Assembly: GCA_963811165.1 (NCBI GenBank)
Contig: CAWEQH010000010.1
Location: forward strand, 960,001 to 1,024,000
Direction: 5' to 3'
Source of the DNA: an uncultured Nitrospiraceae bacterium
GTDB lineage: Bacteria; Nitrospirota; Thermodesulfovibrionia; Thermodesulfovibrionales; UBA6898
Length of the DNA: 64,000 bases
How positions within the stretch are numbered: the first letter of the stretch is position 1; every line of letters starts with the position of its first letter. Position numbers and translations under genes: made by a program. Below the pieces are notes generated by a model, which was not told where the DNA came from, searched no databases, and saw only the letters and a program-made list of their open reading frames with translations. Below, one piece after another: positions 43,742-62,354 of this stretch.

Positions 43742-45103
43742 CTAACGCTCCGGCCCCTCCGAGGCCATGCCGGCTTCCGCCAGGTCGCCTACTACAATCA
43801 AGGTATAGTCTTCCGGGTGCAGATAGGTCGCCGCTACCCTTCGGACATCATACCGACCCACCGATCTTATCAGGGTAGGGTATAATTCCGGATAATCGAG
43901 CCCGAGTCCGTAATACTCCTCCTGAACCATGAAATTGGCAAGCTTCGCCTGGGTATCTATCCGCAGAGGAAAACTGCCGATAAGATATTTTTTTGCCCCT
44001 TCCAGTTCCTTATCTGAAACCAGCTCTTCTTTAATTCTCTTCATTTGTTGCAGTACCAGAGAGATCGCTTCCCGGGCAGATGAATTTTTTGTCTGAAGGA
44101 CCACCTGAAAGGAGCCCGGATACTTTCCCGGGTCAAAGAAACTCGTCACTGAATAAGCAAGCCCCCTCTTATCGCGGACCTCTTCGAGCAGTCTGGATGC
44201 AAAACCTCCCCCGCCAAGGATATAATTCATTACGCTCAGTGCATAGAAGTCGATATTTTCCCTGTTTATCCCCGGGTTGCCCAGAATGATATTTGCCTGG
44301 GTGATCTTCCGGTCGATCTTGATCGTTACAGGCCCTTTGGAAAAGACAGTTTTGACGGGAACCTTTGGAATTTCGCCAACGGGCAATTTTTCCAATAACG
44401 GGATGAGTTTTGTCTTCACTTCTTCGGCAGTAATATCTCCGACTACGGCGAGGATGCAGTTATTTGGGTGATAGTATGTCTCATAAAACGTGAGGACCCC
44501 CTCCCTCGTGATTCTCGGAAGCGAGTCCTTTGTCCCTATTGCTGGATACCGGTAAGGGCCGGAAAGAAAAAGCGTCTTGAGAAACTCCTTTTCTGCAATT
44601 TCTCCCGGTTGGTCCTCCTGCGACTGTATGAGGGCCAGCGTCTTTTCCACTTCCTGTTTAACTTCTTTCTCCGGGAAGGTCGGTTTCGCTAGCACCTCCA
44701 TGAAAAGCGAGAGCCCCTTATCCAGATCTTTCCTCAGAACACGAAGACTCAATGTGGTATAGTCCCTTCCAGAGGATGAGTCGAGGGATGCTCCAAGAAA
44801 ATCCAGTTCTTCGCTAAGCGCAGAAGCAGTGTGTGCGGACGTGCCGAGAAGAATTCCCCGGGCGGTAAGATGCGACAGGCCTTCCATCCCGGAAGGGTCT
44901 TTGCCGGACCCCGCGTCAATAAGGAGTTGCAGGGTCACAAAGGGGAGGGAATGGTCCTCGCTGTGGAGCAGTACCAGTCGATTTGAAAGGACGGTCTTTT
45001 CAACGGATGGCGCCGCATAAAGAGTACTTTCACGCATGAAAAACGAAAAAATTAATACCGTAACTGCCATGAGGACCTGCTTCCGCATGTTTCGCACCAT
45101 CAT
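43742..45103 (-). CDS. M16 peptidase, non-catalytic subunit
   Basis: LSNRLV, RLLEEVRDKRGLAY; HxxEH absent. Confidence 0.88.
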   Translation of the reverse strand: MMVRNMRKQVLMAVTVLIFSFFMRESTLYAAPSVEKTVLSNRLVLLHSEDHSLPFVTLQLLIDAGSGKDPSGMEGLSHLTARGILLGTSAHTASALSEELDFLGASLDSSSGRDYTTLSLRVLRKDLDKGLSLFMEVLAKPTFPEKEVKQEVEKTLALIQSQEDQPGEIAEKEFLKTLFLSGPYRYPAIGTKDSLPRITREGVLTFYETYYHPNNCILAVVGDITAEEVKTKLIPLLEKLPVGEIPKVPVKTVFSKGPVTIKIDRKITQANIILGNPGINRENIDFYALSVMNYILGGGGFASRLLEEVRDKRGLAYSVTSFFDPGKYPGSFQVVLQTKNSSAREAISLVLQQMKRIKEELVSDKELEGAKKYLIGSFPLRIDTQAKLANFMVQEEYYGLGLDYPELYPTLIRSVGRYDVRRVAATYLHPEDYTLIVVGDLAEAGMASEGPER

Positions 45104-45110
45104 GCCTCCT

Positions 45111-46490
45111 CTACCTTATTGCCCGTCCATTGACCGTGTTTGCCGCCGGAGGGGGCTTCCCCTTCCCGATCGGAAGCGGAATGAGTATTCCTGCTGTCCG
45201 GTTGTCCGGAGTAAGATAACGGGTTGCCACTCGCATAAGGTCTTCCGGAGTAACTTTCCTTATGGAGGGGATGTAATCGTCGATGGACCTCCAATCCAAG
45301 GCGATCTCGTACCTCGCCAGCAGCATGGCCTGATAAAAGAGTGAATCCTGTCCGTATATGAAGGCGGATTCCAGTTGGTTTTTCGCCTTTTCGAGTTCGT
45401 GCTTCCCGATCTGCTCTTTTTGCATGCGCCCGATCTCCTGATTTAATGCCTTTTCTACTTCACCTATATCTTTACCCGGAAGAGGCTCCACAGTGAGATA
45501 AAAAAGGCCTGGATCTCTTGAGACGAGGGGATAATCCGTATCGGCACTCAGCGCCAGCCGCTTTTCCCGGACGAGGCCTTTATAGAGTCTCGAACTTTTG
45601 CCGCTTGAGAGGACCGCCGAAAGAACTTCGAGAGCATAACTGTCAGAGCCCCGCAGGTTGGGTACGTGATATGCCATTGCAAGGAACGGAAGTTGTGCCT
45701 CCTTTTTCACCAGAATCCTTCTCTCCCCATCCTGGGACTGCTCCACGTCTTTATTCTGATCAGGGGCCTCCCCTTTGGGAATTGAGGCAAATGCCTTCTC
45801 AATCAGGGGAATAATTTCCTCTTTCTTAAAGTCCCCCACCACAACGACAAAGGCGTTGACCGGGTTGTAGTAAGTCCCATAATATGCCTTCAGGTCCTCA
45901 AGGGTAAACCGCCTGATATCCGCCATCCATCCTATGGTAGGCCAGTGGTATGGCTGGATCTGAAATGCGGTTGCCTCTACCTGTTCAAAAAGACAGGCCT
46001 TTGGATTATCATCTGTCCTGAGTCTCCGTTCTTCCATCACGACCTGCCGCTCGGTAAGGAAATCGTTTTCCCTGAGGATGAGATTCTGCATCCGGTCCGA
46101 CTCGAGTCCTATAGGTATTCGTACACGGTCAGCGCTGATAGTTTCAAAGTATGCGGTATTGTCGGTGGAAGTGAAGGCATTGTCATTCCCTCCGTTTTCC
46201 TGAATGATTCGGGAGAATTCTTCAGGGGGGACGCTTTTTGTTCCCTTAAACATCATATGTTCAAGCATATGAGAAAGACCCGTTTTTCCCCAGCCCTCAT
46301 TTCGCGAGCCCACCCGGTACCATACCTGAAACGTGACCACAGGTGCTTTGTGATTTTCCAGGAGGAGCACCTTCAGGCCATTGGGAAGGACCTTCTCGTA
46401 AACGCTCTCCCTCATCAGTGCCTCCGCAGACGGGTACAGAAGAAGGGAATACAGCATTAATGAGAGAATCCCTGCTTTGACCGGTCTCAT
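45111..46490 (-). CDS. M16 zinc peptidase, catalytic subunit
   Basis: LPNGL, HMLEH, NAFT, EERR. Confidence 0.92.
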   Translation of the reverse strand: MRPVKAGILSLMLYSLLLYPSAEALMRESVYEKVLPNGLKVLLLENHKAPVVTFQVWYRVGSRNEGWGKTGLSHMLEHMMFKGTKSVPPEEFSRIIQENGGNDNAFTSTDNTAYFETISADRVRIPIGLESDRMQNLILRENDFLTERQVVMEERRLRTDDNPKACLFEQVEATAFQIQPYHWPTIGWMADIRRFTLEDLKAYYGTYYNPVNAFVVVVGDFKKEEIIPLIEKAFASIPKGEAPDQNKDVEQSQDGERRILVKKEAQLPFLAMAYHVPNLRGSDSYALEVLSAVLSSGKSSRLYKGLVREKRLALSADTDYPLVSRDPGLFYLTVEPLPGKDIGEVEKALNQEIGRMQKEQIGKHELEKAKNQLESAFIYGQDSLFYQAMLLARYEIALDWRSIDDYIPSIRKVTPEDLMRVATRYLTPDNRTAGILIPLPIGKGKPPPAANTVNGRAIR

Positions 46491-46491
46491 T

Positions 46492-47964
46492 TCACTGCCC
46501 GGGCCCCTCAGATTGTTTTATCGTGACATATATATGCCCGCCATTTCGGAACAGCAAAAGGAGAACCGTATCAGAGGGTCTGATTTTAGAGACGATTACT
46601 TCATACTCTTTTATATCTTTCACCGGTTTGCGGTCCACTTCCTCAATAACATCATTCTTTGCAACAAGGCCATACGAAGGACTTTCCTCACTGACATCGA
46701 CAACAACAACACCTTCCACATCTGCCGGTAGGTTCAGGCCCGCCCTCAGATCCGGGGTAAGTTCCTGGACCTGCACGCCCTTTAGTACATTGTTGTGTTC
46801 CACCGCTTTGGCCATTGTCTTTACCGGCAACTCTCCAAGGGTCACGGTAAGCGTCTCTGCCCTGCCCTGTCTGATCACTTTTATCTCCACCGCTTTTCCA
46901 GGAGCAGTATTGGCCGCCATGTTCCTTAGACCCGTTGTATCCTCCACTGGTTTGCCGCCGAACTCCACAATCAGATCTCCCCGCTTCAATCCTGCTTTGC
47001 CTGCAGGACCGGTTTTTATCACGTCTGTAACAAGCACTCCTTTTTCCTCTTTCAGACCAAAAGATTTTGCGAGTTCTGGCGTGAGATTCTGTATTGTCAC
47101 CCCGAGCCAGCCGCGGATGACCTTACCATGTTTGAGAATACTTTGTGCTACCGAGTTTGCCATGTCGGAGGGTATGGCGAATCCGACACCCATGTACCCT
47201 CCGCTTGTCGAAAATATCGCCGAATTTATGCCTACCAACTCGCCATTGGCATTGACCAGTGCTCCTCCTGAGTTTCCGGGATTGATTGCCGCATCAGTTT
47301 GTATGTAGTCTTCGTAGGCTGAGATGCCGATATTGGCCCTGCCTACCGCGCTCACGATACCCATGGTTACCGTTTGATTAAGGCCAAACGGGTTGCCTAT
47401 GGCAATCACCACATCGCCCGCCTTTAACTTGCCGGACTCTCCCATCTTGATTGCCGGCAATTCCTTGGCATCGACCTTTATTACCGCAATATCCGTCTGC
47501 GGGTCGTCGCCGATTACCTTTCCCTTAAACTCCCTCTTATCGTAGAGTATTACCTTTATCTCCTCTGCGTCTTTGATCACGTGGTAATTGGTAAGGATGT
47601 AGCCGTCCGATGAAACGATCACGCCGGAGCCCAAGGCGGAAGACTTGAACTTCCTGGGCATGCCGGGGTGGTCGGAGCCGTCGCCAAAGAATTTCCTGAA
47701 GAAAGGATCATTAAAGAAATCGCCCATCGGGTGTTCCTTCATGCTTACCAAGGTGGTGGTGGATATGTTTACCACAGACGGCCTTGTCACCTCCGCAACC
47801 TCCGCCAAATAATTGCTCATTTTGTTGAGGAATTCTCGCGCCTCAGGTGATACCTCCCTGGCTAAAGCGGTCCCTTGAAAGAGAAGTGCGGCGAAGACAA
47901 GAAAACTGAACATACTAACCATAGGTGCGCTGAAAATACTTTTTCTTGAACCAAAATCTTTCAT
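46492..47964 (-). CDS. HtrA/DegP-DegQ serine protease with two PDZ domains
   Basis: ATG 47964 with AAGGAG; TNYHV, DIAV, GNSGG; two PDZ. Confidence 0.94.
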   Translation of the reverse strand: MKDFGSRKSIFSAPMVSMFSFLVFAALLFQGTALAREVSPEAREFLNKMSNYLAEVAEVTRPSVVNISTTTLVSMKEHPMGDFFNDPFFRKFFGDGSDHPGMPRKFKSSALGSGVIVSSDGYILTNYHVIKDAEEIKVILYDKREFKGKVIGDDPQTDIAVIKVDAKELPAIKMGESGKLKAGDVVIAIGNPFGLNQTVTMGIVSAVGRANIGISAYEDYIQTDAAINPGNSGGALVNANGELVGINSAIFSTSGGYMGVGFAIPSDMANSVAQSILKHGKVIRGWLGVTIQNLTPELAKSFGLKEEKGVLVTDVIKTGPAGKAGLKRGDLIVEFGGKPVEDTTGLRNMAANTAPGKAVEIKVIRQGRAETLTVTLGELPVKTMAKAVEHNNVLKGVQVQELTPDLRAGLNLPADVEGVVVVDVSEESPSYGLVAKNDVIEEVDRKPVKDIKEYEVIVSKIRPSDTVLLLLFRNGGHIYVTIKQSEGPGQ

Positions 47965-48022
47965 TATTACACTCCTTCCGGGCCGGATATCCCAAAGCGT
48001 TCCGGCGCGAGACGTCATCCTG

Positions 48023-48544
48023 TTATTGTTCGCCGTGGTGCAAGGTCACCTCAGCTGCATCGGTCCTATCCAGTATTTTGTGCGCCCGGTCCACTTCATC
48101 CGGGGTGCCATGGACTACCAGCAGATATTTATTTGCTTTGAGAAAGGTCTCGTATTTAAGCACTTTTTCCTTAGGTATGCCGAGACTGTAAAGCGCAACC
48201 CCTACGGCGCTCAACCCTCCTATAATAACTGCTCCTTCCAAGGCAGCAACGATCCAGGATACCATAGGCCCCGCCACGATCACTTGTCCGAGTCCAGGCA
48301 CAAAAAACAGCGCCGAGCCGATGAGAAATATCCATAAGCCTGACCAGAAGGCGCCGAGTCTGCCCATGTAGCCGGCCCGTTCTCCCGTATAGTAATAGCC
48401 GACCACCTGTTCTTTGTCGGCATCTTCCCGTCCGATTATGGATATTCTCTTTTCGTCAACGCCATATCTGCGGAGTTCTCCCACCGCTTTTTCCAACCTG
48501 GTATGGCTGTCGTATACTGCAACCGCTGAATTTTTCTTATCCAT
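48023..48544 (-). CDS. General stress / DUF1269-YflT-like membrane protein
   Basis: VAVYDSH, SIIGR, Gly-rich TM hairpin, SLGIPKE, LLVVHG; GGAGG RBS. Confidence 0.72.
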   Translation of the reverse strand: MDKKNSAVAVYDSHTRLEKAVGELRRYGVDEKRISIIGREDADKEQVVGYYYTGERAGYMGRLGAFWSGLWIFLIGSALFFVPGLGQVIVAGPMVSWIVAALEGAVIIGGLSAVGVALYSLGIPKEKVLKYETFLKANKYLLVVHGTPDEVDRAHKILDRTDAAEVTLHHGEQ

Positions 48545-48682
48545 CAAATCCTCCTTATGCACTGCAAGTCTCGGGCCCCTGAAAGTTTCCCGTTATCAAA
48601 ATCCCAAAGGAAAGAAATTCAGATCTTGGTCACCCTTCAAGAGTTCTTGCCCGGATACATGCCGTTCGACATGACGCCGGAG

Positions 48683-49015
48683 TTATTTGAAAGTCTTCAA
48701 AATATATTCAGCAATCGCCTTCGCGTCCTTTTCAGAGATGACCTCTTTGCCGAACTTCACCATCCCAGGTCCCGGGTTTCTCATGAGTCTGATGATGTCT
48801 TTTTCCGTTTTTACGTTATTCGCCCCCCGGTCCTGAGGATTGAGTGACTTGGTGACAGTGACTACGTTGCCTCCGCTGGGATGGCATTTGCTGCAGTGCT
48901 TCATGAACAACCCTTCGCCACGGCTTTCTTTGGAGGTCCCTTTTGCTGAAACTCCTGCAGCGGTGAAAGAATACACGACCGCAAAAAAAAGAAATAAAAG
49001 CGCAATCTTTTTCAT
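48683..49015 (-). CDS. Monoheme class I cytochrome c (c6-like)
   Basis: Signal peptide; GEGLFMKHCSKCHPSGGN; distal Met in GPGM. Confidence 0.9.
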   Translation of the reverse strand: MKKIALLFLFFAVVYSFTAAGVSAKGTSKESRGEGLFMKHCSKCHPSGGNVVTVTKSLNPQDRGANNVKTEKDIIRLMRNPGPGMVKFGKEVISEKDAKAIAEYILKTFK

Positions 49016-49029
49016 ACTTCCTCCTTCAT

Positions 49030-50466
49030 CTAACTAGTTTGAATCGTGACATAGAATGTCTGGCCGCCCCTCTTTACCAGGAAAAGTACCGGCTTGTTTC
49101 TTCCGGACTTTGTCACGGCAGAATCGTAATCGGTGAGGTTTTTTATGGGGATACGGTCGACCTCCCTGATCACATCTCCTACCTGTATCCCGGCGTCGTC
49201 GGCAGGACTGCCGGGCTGGACATTGACGACAACAACTCCGTTTTTGTCTTTTAGCTGAAGCTCTCTCATTACCTGAGGAGTTATATTGTCGGCCGTAAGG
49301 CCGAAGCCTTCAGGAGAAAGCTGCCCTGCTGCAGGGATTTTGCCGGTCGGCATTTCAGCCACCGTTACCGTAAGGGGCAGTTCTTTAGAGTCGCGTATGA
49401 CCTTCACATCGATTTTCTTCCCGGCGGGGGTTTCAGCGACGAGAAGCGGGAGGTCGGCAACCTTTTTGATCTCTTTCCCGTCAAAAGATACGATCACGTC
49501 CCCACGTTTTATTCCGGCGGCACTAGCAGGCCCTCCGGGGACCACCTCGCCTACGAGAACGCCTTGTGGCTCTTTCAGCCCGAGGGCCTGGGCGATCTCC
49601 GGCGTCATGGTCTGCACAGACACTCCTATCCACCCCCTGCTTACCCGTCCCTTCTCCTTTAACTGGGGGGTAATTTTCTTTGCCATATTGCTTGGGATTG
49701 CGAAACCGATACCCTGTCCCGACTGGATAATGGCCGAGTTTATCCCAATCACCTCTCCGCTGAGATTTATAAGCGGCCCTCCGCTGTTGCCGGGGTTGAT
49801 CGGCGCATCCGTCTGAAGAAAATTATCGTAGGGTCCGGATCCGATGACGCGTCCGGTAGCGCTGATTATTCCCTGGGTCACCGTCTCTTCAAGACCGAAG
49901 GGGTTGCCGATGGCGAGCACCCAGTCGCCCACCCGCATCTTGTCCGAATCTCCCAAAGAAAGGGCCGGCAGGTCTTTAAATAAGGAAGAAATCTTGATCA
50001 GCGCCAGGTCGGTTTTGGGGTCCCTCCCTATTACCTTCGCCTTATACTCTCTGCCGTCGGCGAGTTTGACTTTGATCTCGTCTGCCCCATCAACGACGTG
50101 ATTATTCGTGATGATGTATCCGTCTTTGTCGATAATGAACCCTGATCCGAGGCTTTGCTGTTTCAGTTCCTGGTCCGGTATCTCGCCGAAGAACTTATGG
50201 AAGAAATCTCCGAAGGGTTCTCCCCCTTCATCAGGACCGAAGAAATGTCTGAAAGGGCTGCCCGGTATCTTCACTGTCGTAGTAGTGCTGATATTCACAA
50301 CGGCAGGCTTCACCTTTGCCACAAGGTCGGCGAAAGATTGTGGAAAGCCGACAACCGTATATCCTCCCTTCATTTTTTCGCATCCGGGTTGAAGGGCGAT
50401 CGCGCAGAACAGCAAAGTCGAACAAAGAACCACTGCAGTTGTGTAAGCGACATACCGTGTCTTCAT
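49030..50466 (-). CDS. Second HtrA/DegP-DegQ serine protease
   Basis: TNNHV, DLAL, GNSGG; two PDZ. Confidence 0.94.
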   Translation of the reverse strand: MKTRYVAYTTAVVLCSTLLFCAIALQPGCEKMKGGYTVVGFPQSFADLVAKVKPAVVNISTTTTVKIPGSPFRHFFGPDEGGEPFGDFFHKFFGEIPDQELKQQSLGSGFIIDKDGYIITNNHVVDGADEIKVKLADGREYKAKVIGRDPKTDLALIKISSLFKDLPALSLGDSDKMRVGDWVLAIGNPFGLEETVTQGIISATGRVIGSGPYDNFLQTDAPINPGNSGGPLINLSGEVIGINSAIIQSGQGIGFAIPSNMAKKITPQLKEKGRVSRGWIGVSVQTMTPEIAQALGLKEPQGVLVGEVVPGGPASAAGIKRGDVIVSFDGKEIKKVADLPLLVAETPAGKKIDVKVIRDSKELPLTVTVAEMPTGKIPAAGQLSPEGFGLTADNITPQVMRELQLKDKNGVVVVNVQPGSPADDAGIQVGDVIREVDRIPIKNLTDYDSAVTKSGRNKPVLFLVKRGGQTFYVTIQTS

Positions 50467-50725
50467 GTCTTGACTCCTTCATAGTTTACAGTCGCTAAAG
50501 CGTGACAAAGATTTTGGCGGCACAGACTTCTCTCAAAGGAAATCCGATGAGGACCCCGCCTCTTAACAAAATGATATCTCTTTGGGGAAGGTTGTCAAGA
50601 AAGAAAAAGGGCGAAAAATATCTTACTTTCTCTCAATTATTGAGCGAGGACTATAAAGGCTGGCGAAACGAATGTAGGAGGCGGGGAGAGCGGAAGTCCG
50701 GTGAACTGCGACGGGGACAGGATAT

Positions 50726-51442
50726 CTATCCTCCACTGTATCTCGTCATTTCCCGAACGAGATTTTCGTAGAGTTCCGGGAGCCATGGGGGACCTTTTTC
50801 CCCGTCAATCTCAGGTGTTCTTTTTCGAAAGTCGTAAGGCACGATGACTACCTTTGTATTCTCCGTGCCCGTCCTTGCGGCAAGGACGAACAATTCTTCG
50901 ATCGCTTCGTCGCCGACGGCAAGGCATCCTTTTGATTTCGCTTTGCCGTGAATATAGATGTCCCCGCCGAGCTTGGACCTGCCGTCATAACGGGCCATCA
51001 GGCGGTCATACTCGTTGGGATAATCAAGCCTCATCGACAAGTAAAAACGGCTGTTTGGATTTAACTCGGTGATCCGGTAAACCCCCTCGGGCACCTGACG
51101 GTCGCCTGCCGTTTGTTTCGGGCCGCCGGTTCCGCTTGCGGCGTAAATCTCATACGTGGCGATATGGACCCATCTTCCGTCTTTCTCGGCCCAGATTTCA
51201 AGCTCCATCTCATCCTTCAATCCAATCAGGGTCAGACGTGATGGAGGATAGTGCACCCCGGCCCGCTCGAAATAGGCTCTCAGGCGCGACTCGGCACGGG
51301 TACTAATTTTCTTTATGACACCCGGCACAGACCTTTTTTCCGGGAAAAGGGAAGCCTTCATCTGCCCTTTCTGGAGTGCGGAACCATCCGCGGCAAATAC
51401 GAATGTGATCAGGAAAAACGCAGTGACAGTTGACAGTCTCAC
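50726..51442 (-). CDS. YkuD-family protein, YafK/DpaA (LdtF)-like
   Basis: GPK..AGDRQVPEGVY, LNPNSRFYLS, YPNEYD, IHG...SKGC; start uncertain (GTG 51442 or upstream). Confidence 0.8.
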   Translation of the reverse strand: MRLSTVTAFFLITFVFAADGSALQKGQMKASLFPEKRSVPGVIKKISTRAESRLRAYFERAGVHYPPSRLTLIGLKDEMELEIWAEKDGRWVHIATYEIYAASGTGGPKQTAGDRQVPEGVYRITELNPNSRFYLSMRLDYPNEYDRLMARYDGRSKLGGDIYIHGKAKSKGCLAVGDEAIEELFVLAARTGTENTKVVIVPYDFRKRTPEIDGEKGPPWLPELYENLVREMTRYSGG

Positions 51443-51564
51443 GATGGCACCGTCGTTTTTTTTCTGAAAGTAAATCGAAAATATGGATATAATAAAACTA
51501 ACGGAGTACAACAAATTGTTGAGATTCGTATAATAAAATTTTTCTCTACCATGGCGGTAACCAC

Positions 51565-52449
51565 ATGAAAAAAGTTGCTGTTATCTTAACACTTCTGCTG
51601 CTGATTTGTCGCGGGGCTGATGCGGCACCCCAGGTGTTTTGTCATAGCAAGGGTGATTCGGTGATAGGTTCAGTCACTTCTTACACTCTTAAGCCGGGAG
51701 AGTCCCTGATAGAGATCGCCAGGAAATTTGACCTCGGGTACAACGAGATTGCTGCGGCGAATCCGGATCTGGACCCTTTTGTTCCGGGCAAGGGCAATAC
51801 GGCCGCTATTCCGACCTCATGGATACTGCCCGATGTCGGAACGCGTGAGGGGATCGTCATTAATCTGTCCGAACTCAGGCTATATTATTTTTACAAGACC
51901 GGTCAGGCAAAGTTCGTCCGCACCTTTCCCCTAGGCATAGGGAGCGAAGGAAACGATACCCCTACCGGTCAATTTGCCGTGATTGAAAAGATCGTCCGGC
52001 CCTCATGGCATGTTCCCGAATCGATCAGAGAAGGAAAAACCCTTTCTGCCCGACGTCGTTCCGCCGGGGCCGAAAACCCGCTTGGCTCTCATGCAATGCG
52101 GCTCTCTCGTCCGACTATCCTTATCCACGGCACGAATAAACCATGGGGTGTCGGCAGGCGGGCCACCCACGGCTGCATCAGGCTTTACCCTGAGGATATC
52201 CCCGTGCTGTTCAGTTCAGTTCCAAAGGGCGTGAAGGTAATGATCGTGAGACAGCCGGTAAAAGCAGGCCTTAAAGATGAAAGGGTATACCTGGAAGTAC
52301 ACGGAGAAGATGGAAGAAATGACTCCGAATTATTCTCGGAAGCAGCTATCAGTTTTGGCGAAGAAGCGACTTTTGGGCCGCGTGGATACCAGAAACTTCA
52401 TCATGCTATTGAGGAGAAAATTGGGATGCCGGTCGATATTTCGGGATGA
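51565..52449 (+). CDS. LysM L,D-transpeptidase, ErfK/YbiS/YcfS-like (two compensated frameshift segments)
   Basis: Signal peptide; LysM (ESLIEIARKF...AANP); INLSELRLY; IHGT...THGCIRL; canonical LPDVVPPGP is in another frame. Confidence 0.9.
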   Translation: MKKVAVILTLLLLICRGADAAPQVFCHSKGDSVIGSVTSYTLKPGESLIEIARKFDLGYNEIAAANPDLDPFVPGKGNTAAIPTSWILPDVGTREGIVINLSELRLYYFYKTGQAKFVRTFPLGIGSEGNDTPTGQFAVIEKIVRPSWHVPESIREGKTLSARRRSAGAENPLGSHAMRLSRPTILIHGTNKPWGVGRRATHGCIRLYPEDIPVLFSSVPKGVKVMIVRQPVKAGLKDERVYLEVHGEDGRNDSELFSEAAISFGEEATFGPRGYQKLHHAIEEKIGMPVDISG

Positions 52450-52533
52450 CGGTAACTTTTCGCGAGCCCTAGCCCTGGGAACTGAAGGACCCGGATAACA
52501 TCCGATGGATATCCGGGTCCCTGCATCTCATGG

Positions 52534-52875
52534 TTATTTCCTTTGTTCGAGTTCAAAGGCCTTCTTGGCTTTTTCAGCTGCTGCCTCAGCTCTCTTGGCA
52601 GCCGCCTCGGCCCTCTCCGCGGCAGCATCTCCCTGGCCGCAGCATTTCTTTGCCTCCGCTGCCAATGCCTTTGCCTCCTGCGCCTCCTTCATGGCCTGTT
52701 CAGCAGAACCTGCTGTCGGTCGTGCTTCGAGTGCGGAAACCCGCGCCTCGAGCTTGCTTATCCTGTCATTCAGAGGTTCGATCTGCTGTCTGACATAATC
52801 CCTCGATGCGCAGCCGACGACAAATAAAGTCAGGAAAACACTGATCAGGGTCAACAATGGTAACGATCTTCTCAT
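52534..52875 (-). CDS. Lpp/OprI-like alanine-zipper lipoprotein with C-terminal Lys
   Basis: GGAGGT RBS; lipobox VVGC; heptad coiled coil; Ala-rich zipper; ends EQRK. Confidence 0.82.
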   Translation of the reverse strand: MRRSLPLLTLISVFLTLFVVGCASRDYVRQQIEPLNDRISKLEARVSALEARPTAGSAEQAMKEAQEAKALAAEAKKCCGQGDAAAERAEAAAKRAEAAAEKAKKAFELEQRK

Positions 52876-53019
52876 CCTTCTCACCTCCCTTTCTATAGTT
52901 GAGTTACCCCCATCCTACCTCCTAATCCCTCGGTGTGCAACCAGGCCCCCTGTTGTCGGATTTCCCGCCACTGCCGAGTCTTCATCGGAAACGGCTTGAC
53001 GCACCGGATCGGTCTGCAC

Positions 53020-53676
53020 TTATGACTGTTTGCGTATCATCGACAATGCGATAAAGGCTTCCCTTCTCAGAAGCGGCTCGCCGGCATCACCGGCTATTTT
53101 TTCGAGGGAGGAAACCGCCCTCGCATCTCTTAACATGCCGAGTGAGCGAATTGCGCTAATCTTTATCACAAAACGGATGTCTTTCAGTTGAGCAATGAGA
53201 TAAGGGACCGCAGTCACATCTCCGACCCTTCCCAGCGAGACAATGGATGCCTCCCGCACCGGAAGCTCAGGGTCGTCCAACCCTTGGATAAGGGCCCCGG
53301 ATACCCTCGGCCCGGAAAAATTTCCAAGGGCAAGGGCAAGGCTGCTTTTAAGAGCCGGGCATCCCTGATGAAAAAAAATATCGGAAAACAGCTGCAGTAA
53401 AACATCTTCCACCCGGGGAGTATGTATCCGGGCCAACAGGCCAATACCCCGCATCTGGAGTCTCCAGTCAAGACCCCGATTCCTTATCACCTCGATAAGC
53501 GCCTCCGTTGCTTGCCGATTGTTCATTCCTTCCGGTGCGTCAAGAAGAAAGGCCTCCCCCTCGTTTTTTTGAAGTTGCCTGATAATGGAGTCCGGGCCGG
53601 ACGCAGACACGGGCATGCTTGCGGCAAGAGAGAAGATGAGGAGAATAGCGGGCTCTATTTTTCTGCGAATATTCAA
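53020..53676 (-). CDS. Exported HEAT-repeat protein
   Basis: TTG after AGGAGG; signal peptide; repeats ALALG, VREASIVSLG, SAIRSLG. Confidence 0.78.
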   Translation of the reverse strand: MNIRRKIEPAILLIFSLAASMPVSASGPDSIIRQLQKNEGEAFLLDAPEGMNNRQATEALIEVIRNRGLDWRLQMRGIGLLARIHTPRVEDVLLQLFSDIFFHQGCPALKSSLALALGNFSGPRVSGALIQGLDDPELPVREASIVSLGRVGDVTAVPYLIAQLKDIRFVIKISAIRSLGMLRDARAVSSLEKIAGDAGEPLLRREAFIALSMIRKQS

Positions 53677-53954
53677 TAGTCGACCTCCTGTGAATTCATA
53701 CCGGAGTGATGTTACAATCTTATCATCCGTATTGCCGCGTGACAACCTCGGCCTCTTTCTTTTTTTAATCATCACACACTCGGGGGAGGTTGACTTCAAT
53801 CAGTCGTCTAAACGGCCGCCGGCTGTCCAATTCGGCATTTTAATCGATACATTTCAACTTTGCATTAAAGACTTTACATTGAATTTCGCAAACCTTCAGT
53901 GCCTATGAAGAATGAGGTACCGGTGGTACACTTTTACAAAGGGAGGCAAAGATT

Positions 53955-56192: not shown

Positions 56193-58617
56193 TTGAGTCT
56201 GAGAGTCAGAAACACAGCTGAATACAAGAAGCTCTCGATTGAAGAGTCCCTGAAGATCCTGGAGACTTCGACAGATGGTATTGCGGAATCAGAAGCAGAA
56301 AAGCGCCTTGAGATATTCGGGTATAACGAAATCACAGAGAAAAAGAAGAACCCCTTTCTTGAATTTTTGCTGCGTTACTGGGGTCCCATGCCGTGGCTGC
56401 TGGAGCTTGCAATGGGGCTTTCGTTTATATTGAGGCATCATATCGAGGGATTCATAATCTTTGCGTTGCTCACGGTAAATGCCGTCATTGGCCAAGTGCA
56501 TTCACGCGGCTCGCAAAAGGCCGTAGAACTCCTTAAGAAAAAGCTGGCGGTCAAAGCGAAAGTATTGCGCGATGGCAAGTGGGTCATTAAAGAGGCCAAG
56601 GAAATTGTACCCGGAGACATCATCGCCGTTGGGCTCGGAGATATCGTTCCTGCAGATGCCAAAATTATAAGCGGCGGGCTTTCCATTGATCAATCAGCCC
56701 TGACCGGAGAATCCCTGCCCATAGAGACACAGCAGGCAGACATACTCTATTCGAGTTCCGTAGTGAGGCGTGGAGAGGCCAGGCTGCACTGTAGTCAATA
56801 CCGGAGCAAACACATACTTCGGCAAAACAGCGGAACTCGTCAGAACAGCAAAGCCGAAGTCCCACCAAGGGGAAGTGATGATGACTATGGTCAGATATAT
56901 GATGTATCTGGCTATAGCCGCACTGGTCTTAATTTTGGCATACGGTGTGATTATGAGATTAGAAGAACATATCGTCACTGTACTGACCCTGGCGGTAATC
57001 TTCCTTATGGGCGCGGTCCCTGTGGCCCTTCCGGCAGTGCTCACCATCGTCCAGTCCGTCGGAGCAATGGAGCTTGCAAAAAAGGGAGCGCTCGTGACCA
57101 GACTCGATTCGATCGAGGATGCCGCTTCGATAGATGTCCTCTGCTTCGATAAGACAGGTACGATAACTCAGAATAAATTATCGGTTGCTGAAAGCATACC
57201 GTTCTCCGGATATACGAAAGAGGATGTTGTCCTTACAGCCGCCTTGGCCTCACAAGAGGAAGGGATGGACATCATAGACCTTGCGGTCATCGACTATGCG
57301 AAAAGCATGAGAGTTGATTTTATCCCCTACAAACGGATATCCCATACCCCCTTTGATCCATCGACTAAGAGGAGCGAGGCGATAATAGGGATCGGCACAA
57401 AGCATTTTAAAGCGGTCAAAGGCGCAGCCCATATAGTCTTATCCATGTGCCGGGGAATCGACAAAAAAGAGATGGAGAAGGCAAACGGGACCATAGAAGA
57501 GTTTTCCCGGAAAGGATACAGAACGATAGCAGTTGCCCGTTCGGAAGGCGACGCGGATAATCTTAAACTTGCAGGATTGCTTTCATTGGCCGATCCACTC
57601 AGGCCGGACTCAAAAAGCATGATAGAACAGGCAAGAAAGCTGGGAATAAAGCCTATAATGCTTACCGGCGATAGTATGGCCATAGCGAAAGAGATAGCCC
57701 TTCAGGCCGGGATAGGCGGAAACATTATCCGTATGGCGGATATCGGTGGCTTACGCGGGGACGAGCAGATGAGGGTCGTAGGAGAAAGCGATGGGTTTGC
57801 CGAGATATATCCGGAAGACAAGTATAAGATTGTGAAACTTCTGCAGTCCAGAGGGCACATGGTAGGGATGACTGGAGACGGTGTGAATGATGCCCCTGCG
57901 CTTAAACAGGCGGAGATGGGGATAGCGGTGAGCAATGCGACCGACGTGGCAAAGGCGGCTGCGAGCGTAGTACTGACCGAAGCGGGTATAAGTGTGATAA
58001 TCAATGCCGTCACAATAAGCAGACAGACCTATCAACGGATGCTGACATGGGTCATTAACAAAGTCACGAAGGTAATAGAATTCGTCGGTCTGCTGACCCT
58101 GAGTTTCTTCTGGCTCCATGACATTGTGCTCTCTCTCCTGGGGATGTCGCTCCTGGTGTTTGCAAACGATTTCGTGACCATGTCCCTTGCAACCGACAAT
58201 GTAAAACATACTCCTAATCCCAACATGTGGAATGTAAAGAACATTACTCTTGCGTCACTCGTTCCGGGCATGCTCTTGGTTGTGGAGGGCATGCTCGTTA
58301 TTGCGGCGGGCATGAAATATTTTCATCTTGAATGGGAGAAACTGCGCACCCTGGTAATGTTGAACCTGATATTCAACAGCCAGTTCAGGGTCTTGATCGT
58401 TCGGGAGAGAAGGCACTTCTGGTCGTCGCTTCCGGGCAGGGAATTACTGGTCCTGAGCGCGGCGACCATAATCGGATTTGCACTGGCGGGTGTATATGGA
58501 ATCTTTGTTCCGCCCCTTAAGCCCTATCAGGTTTCCGCTGTTTTGATATTTTCGGCAGTGTTTACGCTCGGTATTGATTTCCCGAAGTTCTATATATTCA
58601 AAAAATTCAAATTATAA
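56193..58617 (+). CDS. Type IIIA (plasma-membrane H+-efflux type) P-type ATPase, +1 frameshift near 56784
   Basis: FGYNEI, WGPMPW, VPGD, LTGES in first frame; PVALP, DKTGT, MTGDGVNDAPALK, NDFV in second frame. Confidence 0.9.
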
Positions 58618-60839: not shown

Positions 60840-62354
60840 ATGAGCAAATTACAATTTCCGCATCCAAACATTTCTTCACGCCCCAGCTGGAAGTGGTTTA
60901 TTCTTTCCACTGTTCTGCTTGGCGCCACCATGTCGGCCCTTGACGTAAGCATTGTTAACGTTGCCATGCCGACTCTCAAGAACTACCTTTGGGGTCTCCA
61001 TGGCGGTCATCGAGTGGATAGCCATGGCCTATATGCTTACCCTCACCATTTTTCTGCCGTTCTTCGGAAGGCTGGCCGATATGTTCGGAAGGTCAAAGCT
61101 CTACAATATCGGTTTTGTGGTCTTCTCCGTGGGTTCGCTGTTTTGCGGCATGTCTATCTACCGCCGGCATGATGATCGCCGCCCGGGTCATCCAGGCAAT
61201 CGGGGCCGGGTCTTTTGCAGGCCAACTCGGTCGCTCTCATCACGCATGCGTTTCCGGCGAACGAGAGGGGCAAGGCCATCGGCATCCAGGGGGCGGTGCA
61301 GGCGATTTCGATGTCGGTCGGTCCCTTTGTGGGAGGTATCCTGATAGCCACGGTAGGCTGGAGGGCGATCTTCTACGTGAATATCCCGATAGGGATACTG
61401 GGGACACTGGCCGCTCTTTTCATCCTGCCGCCAAACCAGAAAGTCGAAAAGAAGGAGAAAATCGATTATCTTGGGACCGTGCTTTTCGCCTCCGGGCTTG
61501 CTTCTATCGTGCTGGCCTTCAACGAGGGAGTAAAGCTCGGCTGGGGCTCGAATACGATTATCATGTATTTTCTGTCCGGCATCGTTTTGATGGCGCTTTT
61601 TATTCTCACGGAACTTCGGGTCGAACATCCGCTGATAGACCTCAAGCTCTTCAAGAATGCCACCTTCCTCATAGGGAATCTGACCGGCATGCTGTCTTAT
61701 TACGTCTTGTTCGCCATCATGTTCATGATGCCCTTTTATCTCCAAAAGGTGTTGGGCTACAGTATTGCGCTCACCGGTTCCTTGCTGACCCCTGTCCCGC
61801 TTGCAATGGCCCTGGTCGCTCCATTTTCCGGTCATATCTCGGATAAGTACGGACCAAGGATCATGACCACCTCGGGGATGCTTATCTCCGCCCTGGCCTG
61901 CTTCTCCCTCATGTTCATGGGGGCCTCGGCGCAGCTCCCCGTACTCGTGGCCGTGTTGGTCCTCCTGGGGATTGGTATGGGATTATTCACCCCCCCAAAC
62001 AACAGCGCTATCATGGGCTCAGCCCCGAAGGAAAAACTAGGCGTGGCTGGCGGCGTCCTGAATATGATGAGGTCTCTTGGACTTATCTTGGGCGTGGACA
62101 TCTCCGGTGTCATATTCACCACCCTGGAGCACCGCTACCTGGCTGAGAAAGGATATCCCAACGTCCAGCACATATTCAACAACACCAGCATCCCCGTGTT
62201 GGTCAAGGACAATGCTTTCATGCACGGCTTCCTTGTCGTAATAGGGGTTCTCCTGGCCCTCAATCTCCTCGCCGCCTTCTTTTCAGCCGCGAACAAGTCG
62301 GAAATTGACGCTGAAGCTGCCGAGGCAGCCAGGGAATTTGTGGATGCAGCATAG
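60840..62354 (+). CDS. Second DHA2 MFS paralogue with three +1 frameshifts (near 60981, 61155, 61209)
   Basis: Colinear with first MFS across ORFs 60840, 60952, 61115, 61215; AAGGAG RBS. Confidence 0.85.
61263..61549 (+). repeat. Second copy of the 287-bp MFS segment
   Basis: Matches 59307-59593. Confidence 0.9.

Follow-up and report, generated by a model that had tools for sequence, protein, structure and literature searches.

Does a lipoprotein of an uncultured Nitrospiraceae bacterium tie the outer membrane covalently to peptidoglycan, and do the genes beside it encode the enzymes that attach and release it? The locus that raises this question occupies positions 50,726 to 53,676 of the window, the 64,000-nucleotide stretch of contig CAWEQH010000010.1 that was analysed here. 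It comprises a gene for a YkuD-domain hydrolase resembling DpaA/YafK (50726..51442, minus strand), a gene for a LysM-YkuD L,D-transpeptidase (Ldt; 51565..52449, plus strand), a gene for an alanine-zipper lipoprotein resembling Lpp and OprI (52534..52875, minus strand), and a HEAT-repeat gene (53020..53676, minus strand). The lipoprotein gene is arranged tail-to-tail with the Ldt gene, which in turn is head-to-head with the dpaA-like gene. The original prediction, made from this sequence, interpreted the genes as a self-contained module in which the lipoprotein is the tether and the two YkuD proteins are its attaching and detaching enzymes. All four genes were recovered at the positions and in the orientations predicted, and a 7.1-kb contig from another public run (X1) that covers positions 50629-53759 at 90-95% identity carries them in identical order, indicating that the layout is real rather than an assembly artefact.

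Our analyses suggest that the locus encodes an OprI/Lpp-type tether that joins the outer membrane covalently to peptidoglycan, with neighbouring attaching and DpaA-like releasing enzymes, and we place the probability of this reading at roughly 0.7. Locus counts given below out of 80 refer to the best 80 related loci in GTDB genomes, whereas genome counts out of 41 refer to a separate, partly overlapping set. Nearly all of the 80 loci are labelled Nitrospirota or Thermodesulfovibrionales (the remainder being one Smithella, one Chloroflexota, one delta-proteobacterial and two unclassified), in agreement with the view that the lineage is not gammaproteobacterial.

The lipoprotein and its terminal lysine

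The lipoprotein comprises 113 amino acids, 92 of them in the mature protein. From its lipobox (VVG-C22-A-S; Cys22 codon at 52810-52812) it proceeds through a leucine zipper, a short linker and an alanine-rich zipper that contains a Cys78-Cys79 pair, and it ends in AFELEQRK (Lys113 codon at 52537-52539). The Gly-Cys of the lipobox is invariant in all 37 aligned family members. In E. coli (Escherichia coli), the residue that follows the lipobox Cys (+2) sorts lipoproteins to the outer membrane. This residue is Ala, and thus not Asp, in 133 of 136 unique homologues, and the genome encodes LolA and Lnt; together these observations are consistent with export to the outer membrane.

The lysine at the C-terminus is conserved in 130 of the 136 unique pooled homologues, in all 77 GTDB loci that could be parsed (3 of the 80 were not), and in 106 of 114 members of a second lipoprotein subfamily. 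Six homologues depart from this pattern: three are missing the C-terminal motif altogether and seem to be frameshifted or truncated, two end in Lys-Gln, and one runs on. Of the RK ending, the Lys is conserved and the Arg is not. The penultimate residue is variable and Arg precedes the terminal Lys in only 21 of 130 homologues, which led us to reject RK as a shared signature. Mature length ranges from 53 to 126 residues across homologues.

Membership in the Lpp/OprI-type family is indicated by profile matches among relatives. At E ≤ 0.001, NF040598 (Lpp/OprI family alanine-zipper lipoprotein) recognises every one of the 37 aligned members, and PF11839 recognises 27 of them at E ≤ 0.01; a paralogue on contig C4 of the window genome and two family members (from G033 and G040) exceed the profile cut-off for alanine-zipper lipoproteins. 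Relatives in Nitrospirota and Syntrophaceae are already labelled as Lpp/OprI-family or murein lipoproteins by NCBI and the Joint Genome Institute. The nearest clusters in the ESM Atlas are Nitrospirota alanine-zipper lipoproteins, but the match is weak (recognition 2233, below the 2300 mark). BLAST of the window lipoprotein against E. coli Lpp gave no match at E ≤ 1, and a fold search of the monomer model against the PDB returned nothing at E ≤ 0.001 other than generic helical matches above that value, an uninformative result.

AlphaFold2 models the monomer as three helices with two short breaks (predicted local distance difference test, pLDDT, 82.7). When three copies were supplied, the prediction was a parallel, in-register trimer with a score of 0.61, compared to 0.00 for the best of three controls. 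Contact agreement in this model is at least 91%, pLDDT is at least 77, and like-with-like contacts occur at residues 28, 32, 35, 39, 42, 46, 49, and 68. The mark applied to this score was reached by 20 of 30 true cases and 1 of 23 single-chain cases in a calibration on two copies only. Consistent with the coiled coil noted in the original prediction, the lipoprotein is thus predicted to form a parallel homo-trimeric coiled coil.

The adjacent cysteines (52639..52644, minus strand) lie where the last helical segment begins and are present in 110 of 129 homologues. In 89 of these 110, the distance between the pair and the terminal Lys is 27, 34, 41, 48, or 62 residues; these spacings differ by multiples of seven, so the C-terminal segment varies in whole heptads. 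We report counts because a chi-square test of heptad register overstates the effect when kin are not independent. Both Cys78 and Cys79 are listed in the predicted trimer interface. A disulfide between adjacent cysteines of one helix is strained, so that inter-chain links are likelier if the pair is oxidised. More speculatively, the pair might join neighbouring chains by disulfides and so lock the trimer; alternatively, it may bind metal or remain as free thiols. A VKOR domain fused to a thioredoxin-like domain is encoded elsewhere in the window genome (G000:C10:188444-189286), where no DsbB match was found, and this fusion is a possible periplasmic disulfide-forming route that bears on oxidation of the pair. 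Lipoproteins with extra cysteines were also observed in another phylum (L201 and L202), including a CC at the lipobox and, in one case, a long Lys/Val-rich tail.

Signals upstream of the gene fit a highly expressed, stand-alone lipoprotein gene. A sigma-70-like promoter element, recognised by consensus match (TTGCAC-17-TAGGAT; 52912..52940, minus strand), lies between the lipoprotein and HEAT genes, and a near-perfect ribosome-binding site follows at 52880..52889 (minus strand). Promoter-like elements precede 53 of 76 homologues, compared to a mean of 12 in shuffles and 64 of 304 control open reading frames (ORFs), and an AGG[AG]GGT ribosome site precedes 66 of 76 homologues versus 15 of 304 control ORFs. 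A six-codon ORF upstream of the lipoprotein was dropped from consideration, as its ATG overlaps the promoter-like -10 and it is not kept in relatives. Likewise, a hairpin between the two converging stop codons (52484..52521; -30.2 kcal/mol, z = -1.66) was rejected as a shared terminator, since 12 of 200 shuffles were equally good; a terminator scan did not call it. A single RNA run yielded one 281-base contig over the dpaA-like gene, which is unusable as evidence of transcription or its level.

Several genomes encode more than one lipoprotein of this kind. G040 carries paralogues of mature length 40, 66, and 70 (L182-L184) beside the Ldt-linked copy, G033 carries paralogues of 84 and 98 residues (L017 and L186), and G106 carries tandem paralogues of 95 and 59 residues (L152). 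Loci L052, L060, and L063 are among those with two to four paralogues of differing length per genome, some in tandem. Such paralogues could form mixed trimers or serve as tethers under particular conditions. A distinct alanine-zipper lipoprotein ending in KKH is found tail-to-tail with an ErfK-type Ldt in G026 and G038 (L141 and L142); it could be attached only after trimming or through a sub-terminal Lys.

The two YkuD enzymes

The dpaA-like gene begins with GTG and encodes a protein with a likely signal peptide, the YkuD catalytic His and Cys, and the motif HG...SKGCLA (SxGChA), in which Ala rather than Arg stands two residues past the Cys. Ala or Asn, and not Arg, at this position is the criterion described for DpaA amidases (10.1101/2021.02.21.432140). 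The only NCBIfam match of the enzyme is NF040599 (LdtF/DpaA/YafK; 84.2 bits), and its only PDB sequence match is 8IKR (E 3.8e-15), a code that appears in the paper on the structure of DpaA (PMC10653827). It also groups with E. coli DpaA, with 23 DpaA-like rows on one side of a branch supported by an SH-aLRT (Shimodaira-Hasegawa-like approximate likelihood ratio test) value of 94, in a quick tree of 86 rows that contained no L,D-carboxypeptidase, had DpaA on a long branch, and sampled only about one third of the Ldt rows from the 80 loci. Residues K83, R108, H135, C143, and A145 of DpaA are kept, while in the cleft Y109 is replaced by Phe, Q86 by Ala, and K130/Y131 by Gly/Asp. In DpaA itself, K83, Y109, and Y131 are needed, Q86, R108, and K130 are helpful, and the Y131A variant retains 4% activity (PMC10653827). 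No match to ElsL, Csd6, or Pgp2 was obtained in NCBIfam and PDB sequence searches. These observations bear out the predicted placement of the enzyme within the YafK/DpaA grouping and suggest that it is a DpaA-like hydrolase with putative amidase activity.

The converging gene encodes Pfam LysM and YkuD domains with the transpeptidase motif HG...THGCIR (TxGChR) and belongs to the ErfK/YbiS/YcfS/YnhG lineage. Its NCBIfam matches, all below cut-off, are LdtE (the best), PRK10190, and PRK10260. It shares 33-40% identity with E. coli LdtA, B, C, and E, and its match to LdtD is only short. Four single-base indels interrupt the gene and cancel in pairs (52028..52074 and 52346..52390, plus strand). 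Contig X1 lacks all four, contig X4 lacks the first pair, and contig X3 lacks the indel at 52028; the second pair is spanned by X1 alone. Two stretches of about 15 codons are therefore out of frame in the window, most likely through sequencing error, and the catalytic His and Cys fall outside both. A P-type ATPase gene and one of two tandem major facilitator superfamily transporter genes (56193-58617 and 60840-62354) are also frame-split. The assembly thus seems to be rich in single-base indels, and broken genes in it should not be read as pseudogenes.

The original prediction that this Ldt is the attaching enzyme is upheld as to its lineage and motif, but an attaching role cannot be read from its sequence or position. 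Anchoring and cross-linking Ldts form no separate lineages (PMC10434034). Our attempt to tell attaching from 3-3 cross-linking Ldts by phylogeny failed, as the quick tree does not separate them and places LdtD on a long branch. Position is equally uninformative because the convergent neighbour of E. coli lpp is ldtE, the product of which is a 3-3 cross-linker that does not attach Lpp.

An unlikely alternative follows from this: the lipoprotein may be tethered while its neighbour is an LdtE-like 3-3 cross-linker kept by old synteny, with another paralogue, such as a SPOR-bearing Ldt encoded on contig C4, performing attachment, in which case the locus would not be self-contained. The lpp-ldtE order in E. 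coli and the best NCBIfam match of the window Ldt agree with this explanation. So does the lack of an LdtD-like gene among the five YkuD matches of the window genome, given which an ErfK-type enzyme there may perform 3-3 cross-linking. In addition, it is the C4 Ldt, and not the window Ldt, that is sister to E. coli LdtA/B/C/E in the quick tree (support 88). However, the lipoprotein's neighbour is the sole YkuD match in two genomes rated 100% complete (G009 and G027), and in the single-contig genome G029 the sole other YkuD match is DpaA-like. The neighbour is also still kept where a dedicated LdtD-like gene exists (G033, G005, and G013). The three YkuD matches of G033 are the lipoprotein's neighbour, a DpaA-like enzyme, and an LdtD-like enzyme, a three-way split equal to that of P. 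aeruginosa (Pseudomonas aeruginosa; PMC10434034). Anchoring by the neighbouring Ldt is thus predicted from gene content alone.

Gene order, distribution and remaining alternatives

A convergent Ldt gene lies beside the lipoprotein gene in 60 of the 80 loci, or 60 of the 77 with enough downstream DNA; the other 17 have no neighbouring Ldt. Orthologous dpaA was identified in 7 of 41 genomes (the window genome included) and is head-to-head with the Ldt gene in all seven. A match to the lipoprotein was obtained in 18 of the 41 genomes, all 18 of which have a YkuD gene, and in none of the eight YkuD-less genomes, although kin among these genomes are not independent. Sampling across the phylum (121 genomes) gave 26 genomes with a match to the family profile, mostly with the same gene order; a few weak matches were to other coiled coils.

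The same three kinds of gene also occur together in other arrangements. A second trio in the window genome (G000:C4:45095-48068; L001 and L004) lies on one strand in the order ldt>lpp>dpaA and involves another lipoprotein subfamily. Its Ldt is ErfK-type, 439 amino acids long, with a SPOR-like C-terminus and the motif TNGCIR. Its alanine-zipper lipoprotein has no extra Cys, has 87 mature residues and ends in MKK, with family lengths that step by seven (80, 87, 94). Its DpaA-like enzyme has a long N-terminal helical region and the motif TKGCIA. This trio is complete in five relatives (G001, G004, G011, G020, and G035), and a third gene order of the same gene kinds is found in G046. In the phylum of the Smithella-labelled genome, 16 of 101 genomes matched NF040598 at E ≤ 1e-7, yielding 17 loci. 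All 17 lipoproteins end in Lys, 12 loci have an Ldt gene within 1.5 kb, and 3 also have a DpaA-like gene within that distance. Separately, neighbouring YkuD genes of hydrolase type (GCIS) and transpeptidase type (THGCIR) are conserved as a pair in G011, G020, and G012 (L177, L178, and L179), with no alanine-zipper lipoprotein found nearby.

Several observations, in addition to those on the role of the Ldt, weigh against the proposed tether and its enzymes. The window lipoprotein falls just under the cut-offs of NF040598 (37.8 bits versus 43) and PF11839 (16.5 versus 23.1), and PF04728, the Braun lipoprotein (Lpp) profile, has no match in the window's own genome or among the 37 aligned members. 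The success of the trimer prediction may owe to likeness to solved Lpp-type coiled coils, three copies being the sole number tried. The DpaA-like enzyme lies far below the NF040599 equivalog cut-off of 365 and is not filed as DpaA, and its loss of Y131, a residue needed in DpaA, counts in the same direction. Five OmpA/Pal-domain matches in the genome are possible non-covalent tethers. The full trio of lipoprotein, Ldt, and divergent dpaA-like genes is present in only 4 of the 80 loci. The lipoprotein stands beside the dpaA-ldt pair in G000, G005, and G006, whereas the two are on different contigs in G003, G004, G007, and G019, such that no lipoprotein was found beside the pair in four of the six relatives that have it. 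Finally, relatives have ten or more ErfK-type Ldt loci that lack an alanine-zipper lipoprotein within about 3 kb. The synteny originally proposed is therefore conserved for the lipoprotein-Ldt pair and not for the full trio. With the enzyme grouping beside DpaA, and with the terminal Lys and this pairing conserved, neither of the sequence-based refutations named in the original prediction was borne out. The rarity of the trio, the pairs that lack a lipoprotein, and the presence of a second trio in the genome weaken the notion of a self-contained module.

Some of these observations could be accommodated, with a probability that we judge to be quite low, if the lipoprotein were abundant in the envelope in a structural or non-covalent capacity and never became attached to peptidoglycan. 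The Ldt would then cross-link or edit peptide stems, and the DpaA-like enzyme would remove other adducts (glycine, beta-barrel proteins) or act as an L,D-carboxypeptidase. The covalent adduct is a prediction, Y131 is not kept, and six homologues lack the terminal Lys; moreover, Winkle et al. propose that DpaA-like proteins of species without Lpp act on other substrates or as carboxypeptidases (10.1101/2021.02.21.432140). On the other hand, the terminal Lys is near-invariant in two separate lipoprotein subfamilies, and half of the homologues without it lack the entire C-terminal motif and look damaged. Pairing with an Ldt recurs in two phyla, and DpaA-like genes stand beside the pair in three gene orders, which is hard to explain otherwise, while the searches that found no ElsL, Csd6, or Pgp2 match speak against a carboxypeptidase. 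Adjacency by chance, or because envelope genes were transferred together, with no functional link between enzymes and substrate, would fit the scarcity of full trios and the 17 lipoprotein loci without an Ldt, but is highly improbable given that the lipoprotein-Ldt pair persists in 60 of 80 loci from many genera, that dpaA is divergent from the Ldt gene wherever its orthologue occurs, and that independent trios exist.

The HEAT-repeat gene, which the original prediction had noted upstream of the lipoprotein gene, is probably an incidental local neighbour. Its product (Pfam HEAT_2) has a TTG start behind an AGGAGG ribosome site and a hydrophobic N-terminus that, by eye, is a likely signal peptide. 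A HEAT gene lies near the lipoprotein in just 9 of the 80 loci, with a close orthologue in 5, and the genome has about six HEAT loci. Given these counts and the lipoprotein's own promoter-like site, we rejected the gene as a component. On the other side, the genes just past the dpaA-like gene (43742-50466) make up a neighbourhood of envelope quality control: two encode M16-type peptidases (assigned by eye), two encode DegP/HtrA-like proteases, and one encodes a small cytochrome c. The degP gene adjoining the dpaA-like gene is kept only in G006 among 20 regions checked.

The proposed tethering cycle and known systems

Under the proposed covalent tether, the lipoprotein would be made at high level from its own promoter, lipidated at Cys22, moved to the outer membrane, and assembled as a parallel three-stranded coiled coil. 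By the chemistry of its family, the Cys of the TxGChR enzyme would be acylated by a tetrapeptide stem, the meso-diaminopimelate (meso-DAP) of which would then be linked to the epsilon-amine of Lys113. By analogy with DpaA, the SxGChA enzyme would hydrolyse the resulting Lys113-meso-DAP amide. The genome encodes DapF and a DNPR-type MurE motif, consistent with linkage to meso-DAP. Inter-chain disulfides at the CC pair would be a speculative addition to this cycle.

The chemistry of lipoprotein tethering is established in E. coli, P. aeruginosa, and Dickeya (PMC10434034; PMC12274547; PMC12729407). A close parallel is the OprI/LdtPae2/LdtPae3 system of P. aeruginosa, which likewise combines a Lys-ended lipoprotein, an anchoring enzyme of the ErfK/YbiS/YcfS/YnhG lineage (LdtPae2), and an SxGChA hydrolase (LdtPae3, YafK-like, with a tentative role in release; PMC10434034). 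In contrast, the system described here occurs in a different phylum, has a longer mature lipoprotein of variable length (53-126 residues) with a conserved internal CC, carries its DpaA-like gene in the same locus, and includes two trios in one genome, although it is known from genes only. The locus shares with E. coli a lipoprotein gene tail-to-tail with a LysM-YkuD gene (gap of 63 bp in E. coli and 84 bp in the window), a trimeric coiled coil (predicted in the window), a terminal Lys, and the DpaA motif with K83 (10.1101/2021.02.21.432140, PMC10653827). It differs from E. coli in the alanine zipper, in having 92 rather than 58 mature residues, and in gene order, since E. coli dpaA is far from lpp and the lpp neighbour does not attach Lpp. 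Homologues in Thermodesulfovibrio end in QQKK. In Dickeya, a Lys-Lys end can serve for attachment (PMC12274547).

For the cysteines, a precedent is Salmonella LppB, an Lpp-type protein with Cys-mediated inter-chain disulfides that is still linked by its last Lys (10.1101/2025.11.13.688167). LppB has a single Cys near its C-terminus and lowers tethering, whereas most members of the family described here have two adjacent cysteines in the middle of the rod, whole heptads from the Lys. Lpp-like proteins of at least 99 residues outside the Gammaproteobacteria, and the question of whether they widen the periplasm, were raised for Geobacter (Mandela et al., 2022; PMC8824477); the available text of that paper does not discuss Nitrospirota, gene neighbourhood, enzymes, or cysteines. 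At 0.15 nm per residue, 92 residues would span about 13.5 nm compared to 8.5 nm for the 58 residues of Lpp. Nonetheless, the earlier suggestion that the longer tether sets a wider periplasm is unsupported as stated, since mature lengths vary widely, paralogues of differing length share genomes, and lengthened Lpp partly tilts (PMC8824477).

Our findings conflict with published distributions. One survey restricts Lpp to a subclade of the Gammaproteobacteria (10.1101/2021.05.31.446380), and DpaA-like enzymes outside Lpp-bearing species were concluded to have other substrates (10.1101/2021.02.21.432140). Both relied on PF04728, a profile that misses lipoproteins of the window type and exceeds its cut-off in just 1 of the 41 genomes. 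A literature search that covered few subscription journals and no supplements (the species lists of the surveys could bear on the matter) returned no paper that describes the CC pair, the three-gene locus, or this system in members of the Nitrospirota. A bolder and doubtful extension is that a full Braun-type cycle of attachment and release operates in Nitrospirota and Desulfobacterota and was overlooked by surveys. In Thermodesulfovibrionales, a CC ring of three inter-chain disulfides would let one peptidoglycan-linked Lys hold three lipid anchors with a strength that follows periplasmic redox, and heptad-stepped lengths (53-126 residues, several per genome) would act as natural envelope rulers.

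The surprise is limited, in that the chemistry is known and automated annotation has already named relatives of the lipoprotein. The system nevertheless merits a bench test for its disagreement with published distributions, its recurring trios, its CC pair, and its natural series of lengths, and the locus offers a compact three-gene set for reconstitution. The family also combines that length series with culturable hosts (Thermodesulfovibrio) in which the relationship between tether length and periplasm width (PMC8824477) could be addressed. If the proposed reading is correct, covalent lipoprotein tethering would extend to at least two more phyla, and some orphan DpaA-like enzymes would gain a substrate.

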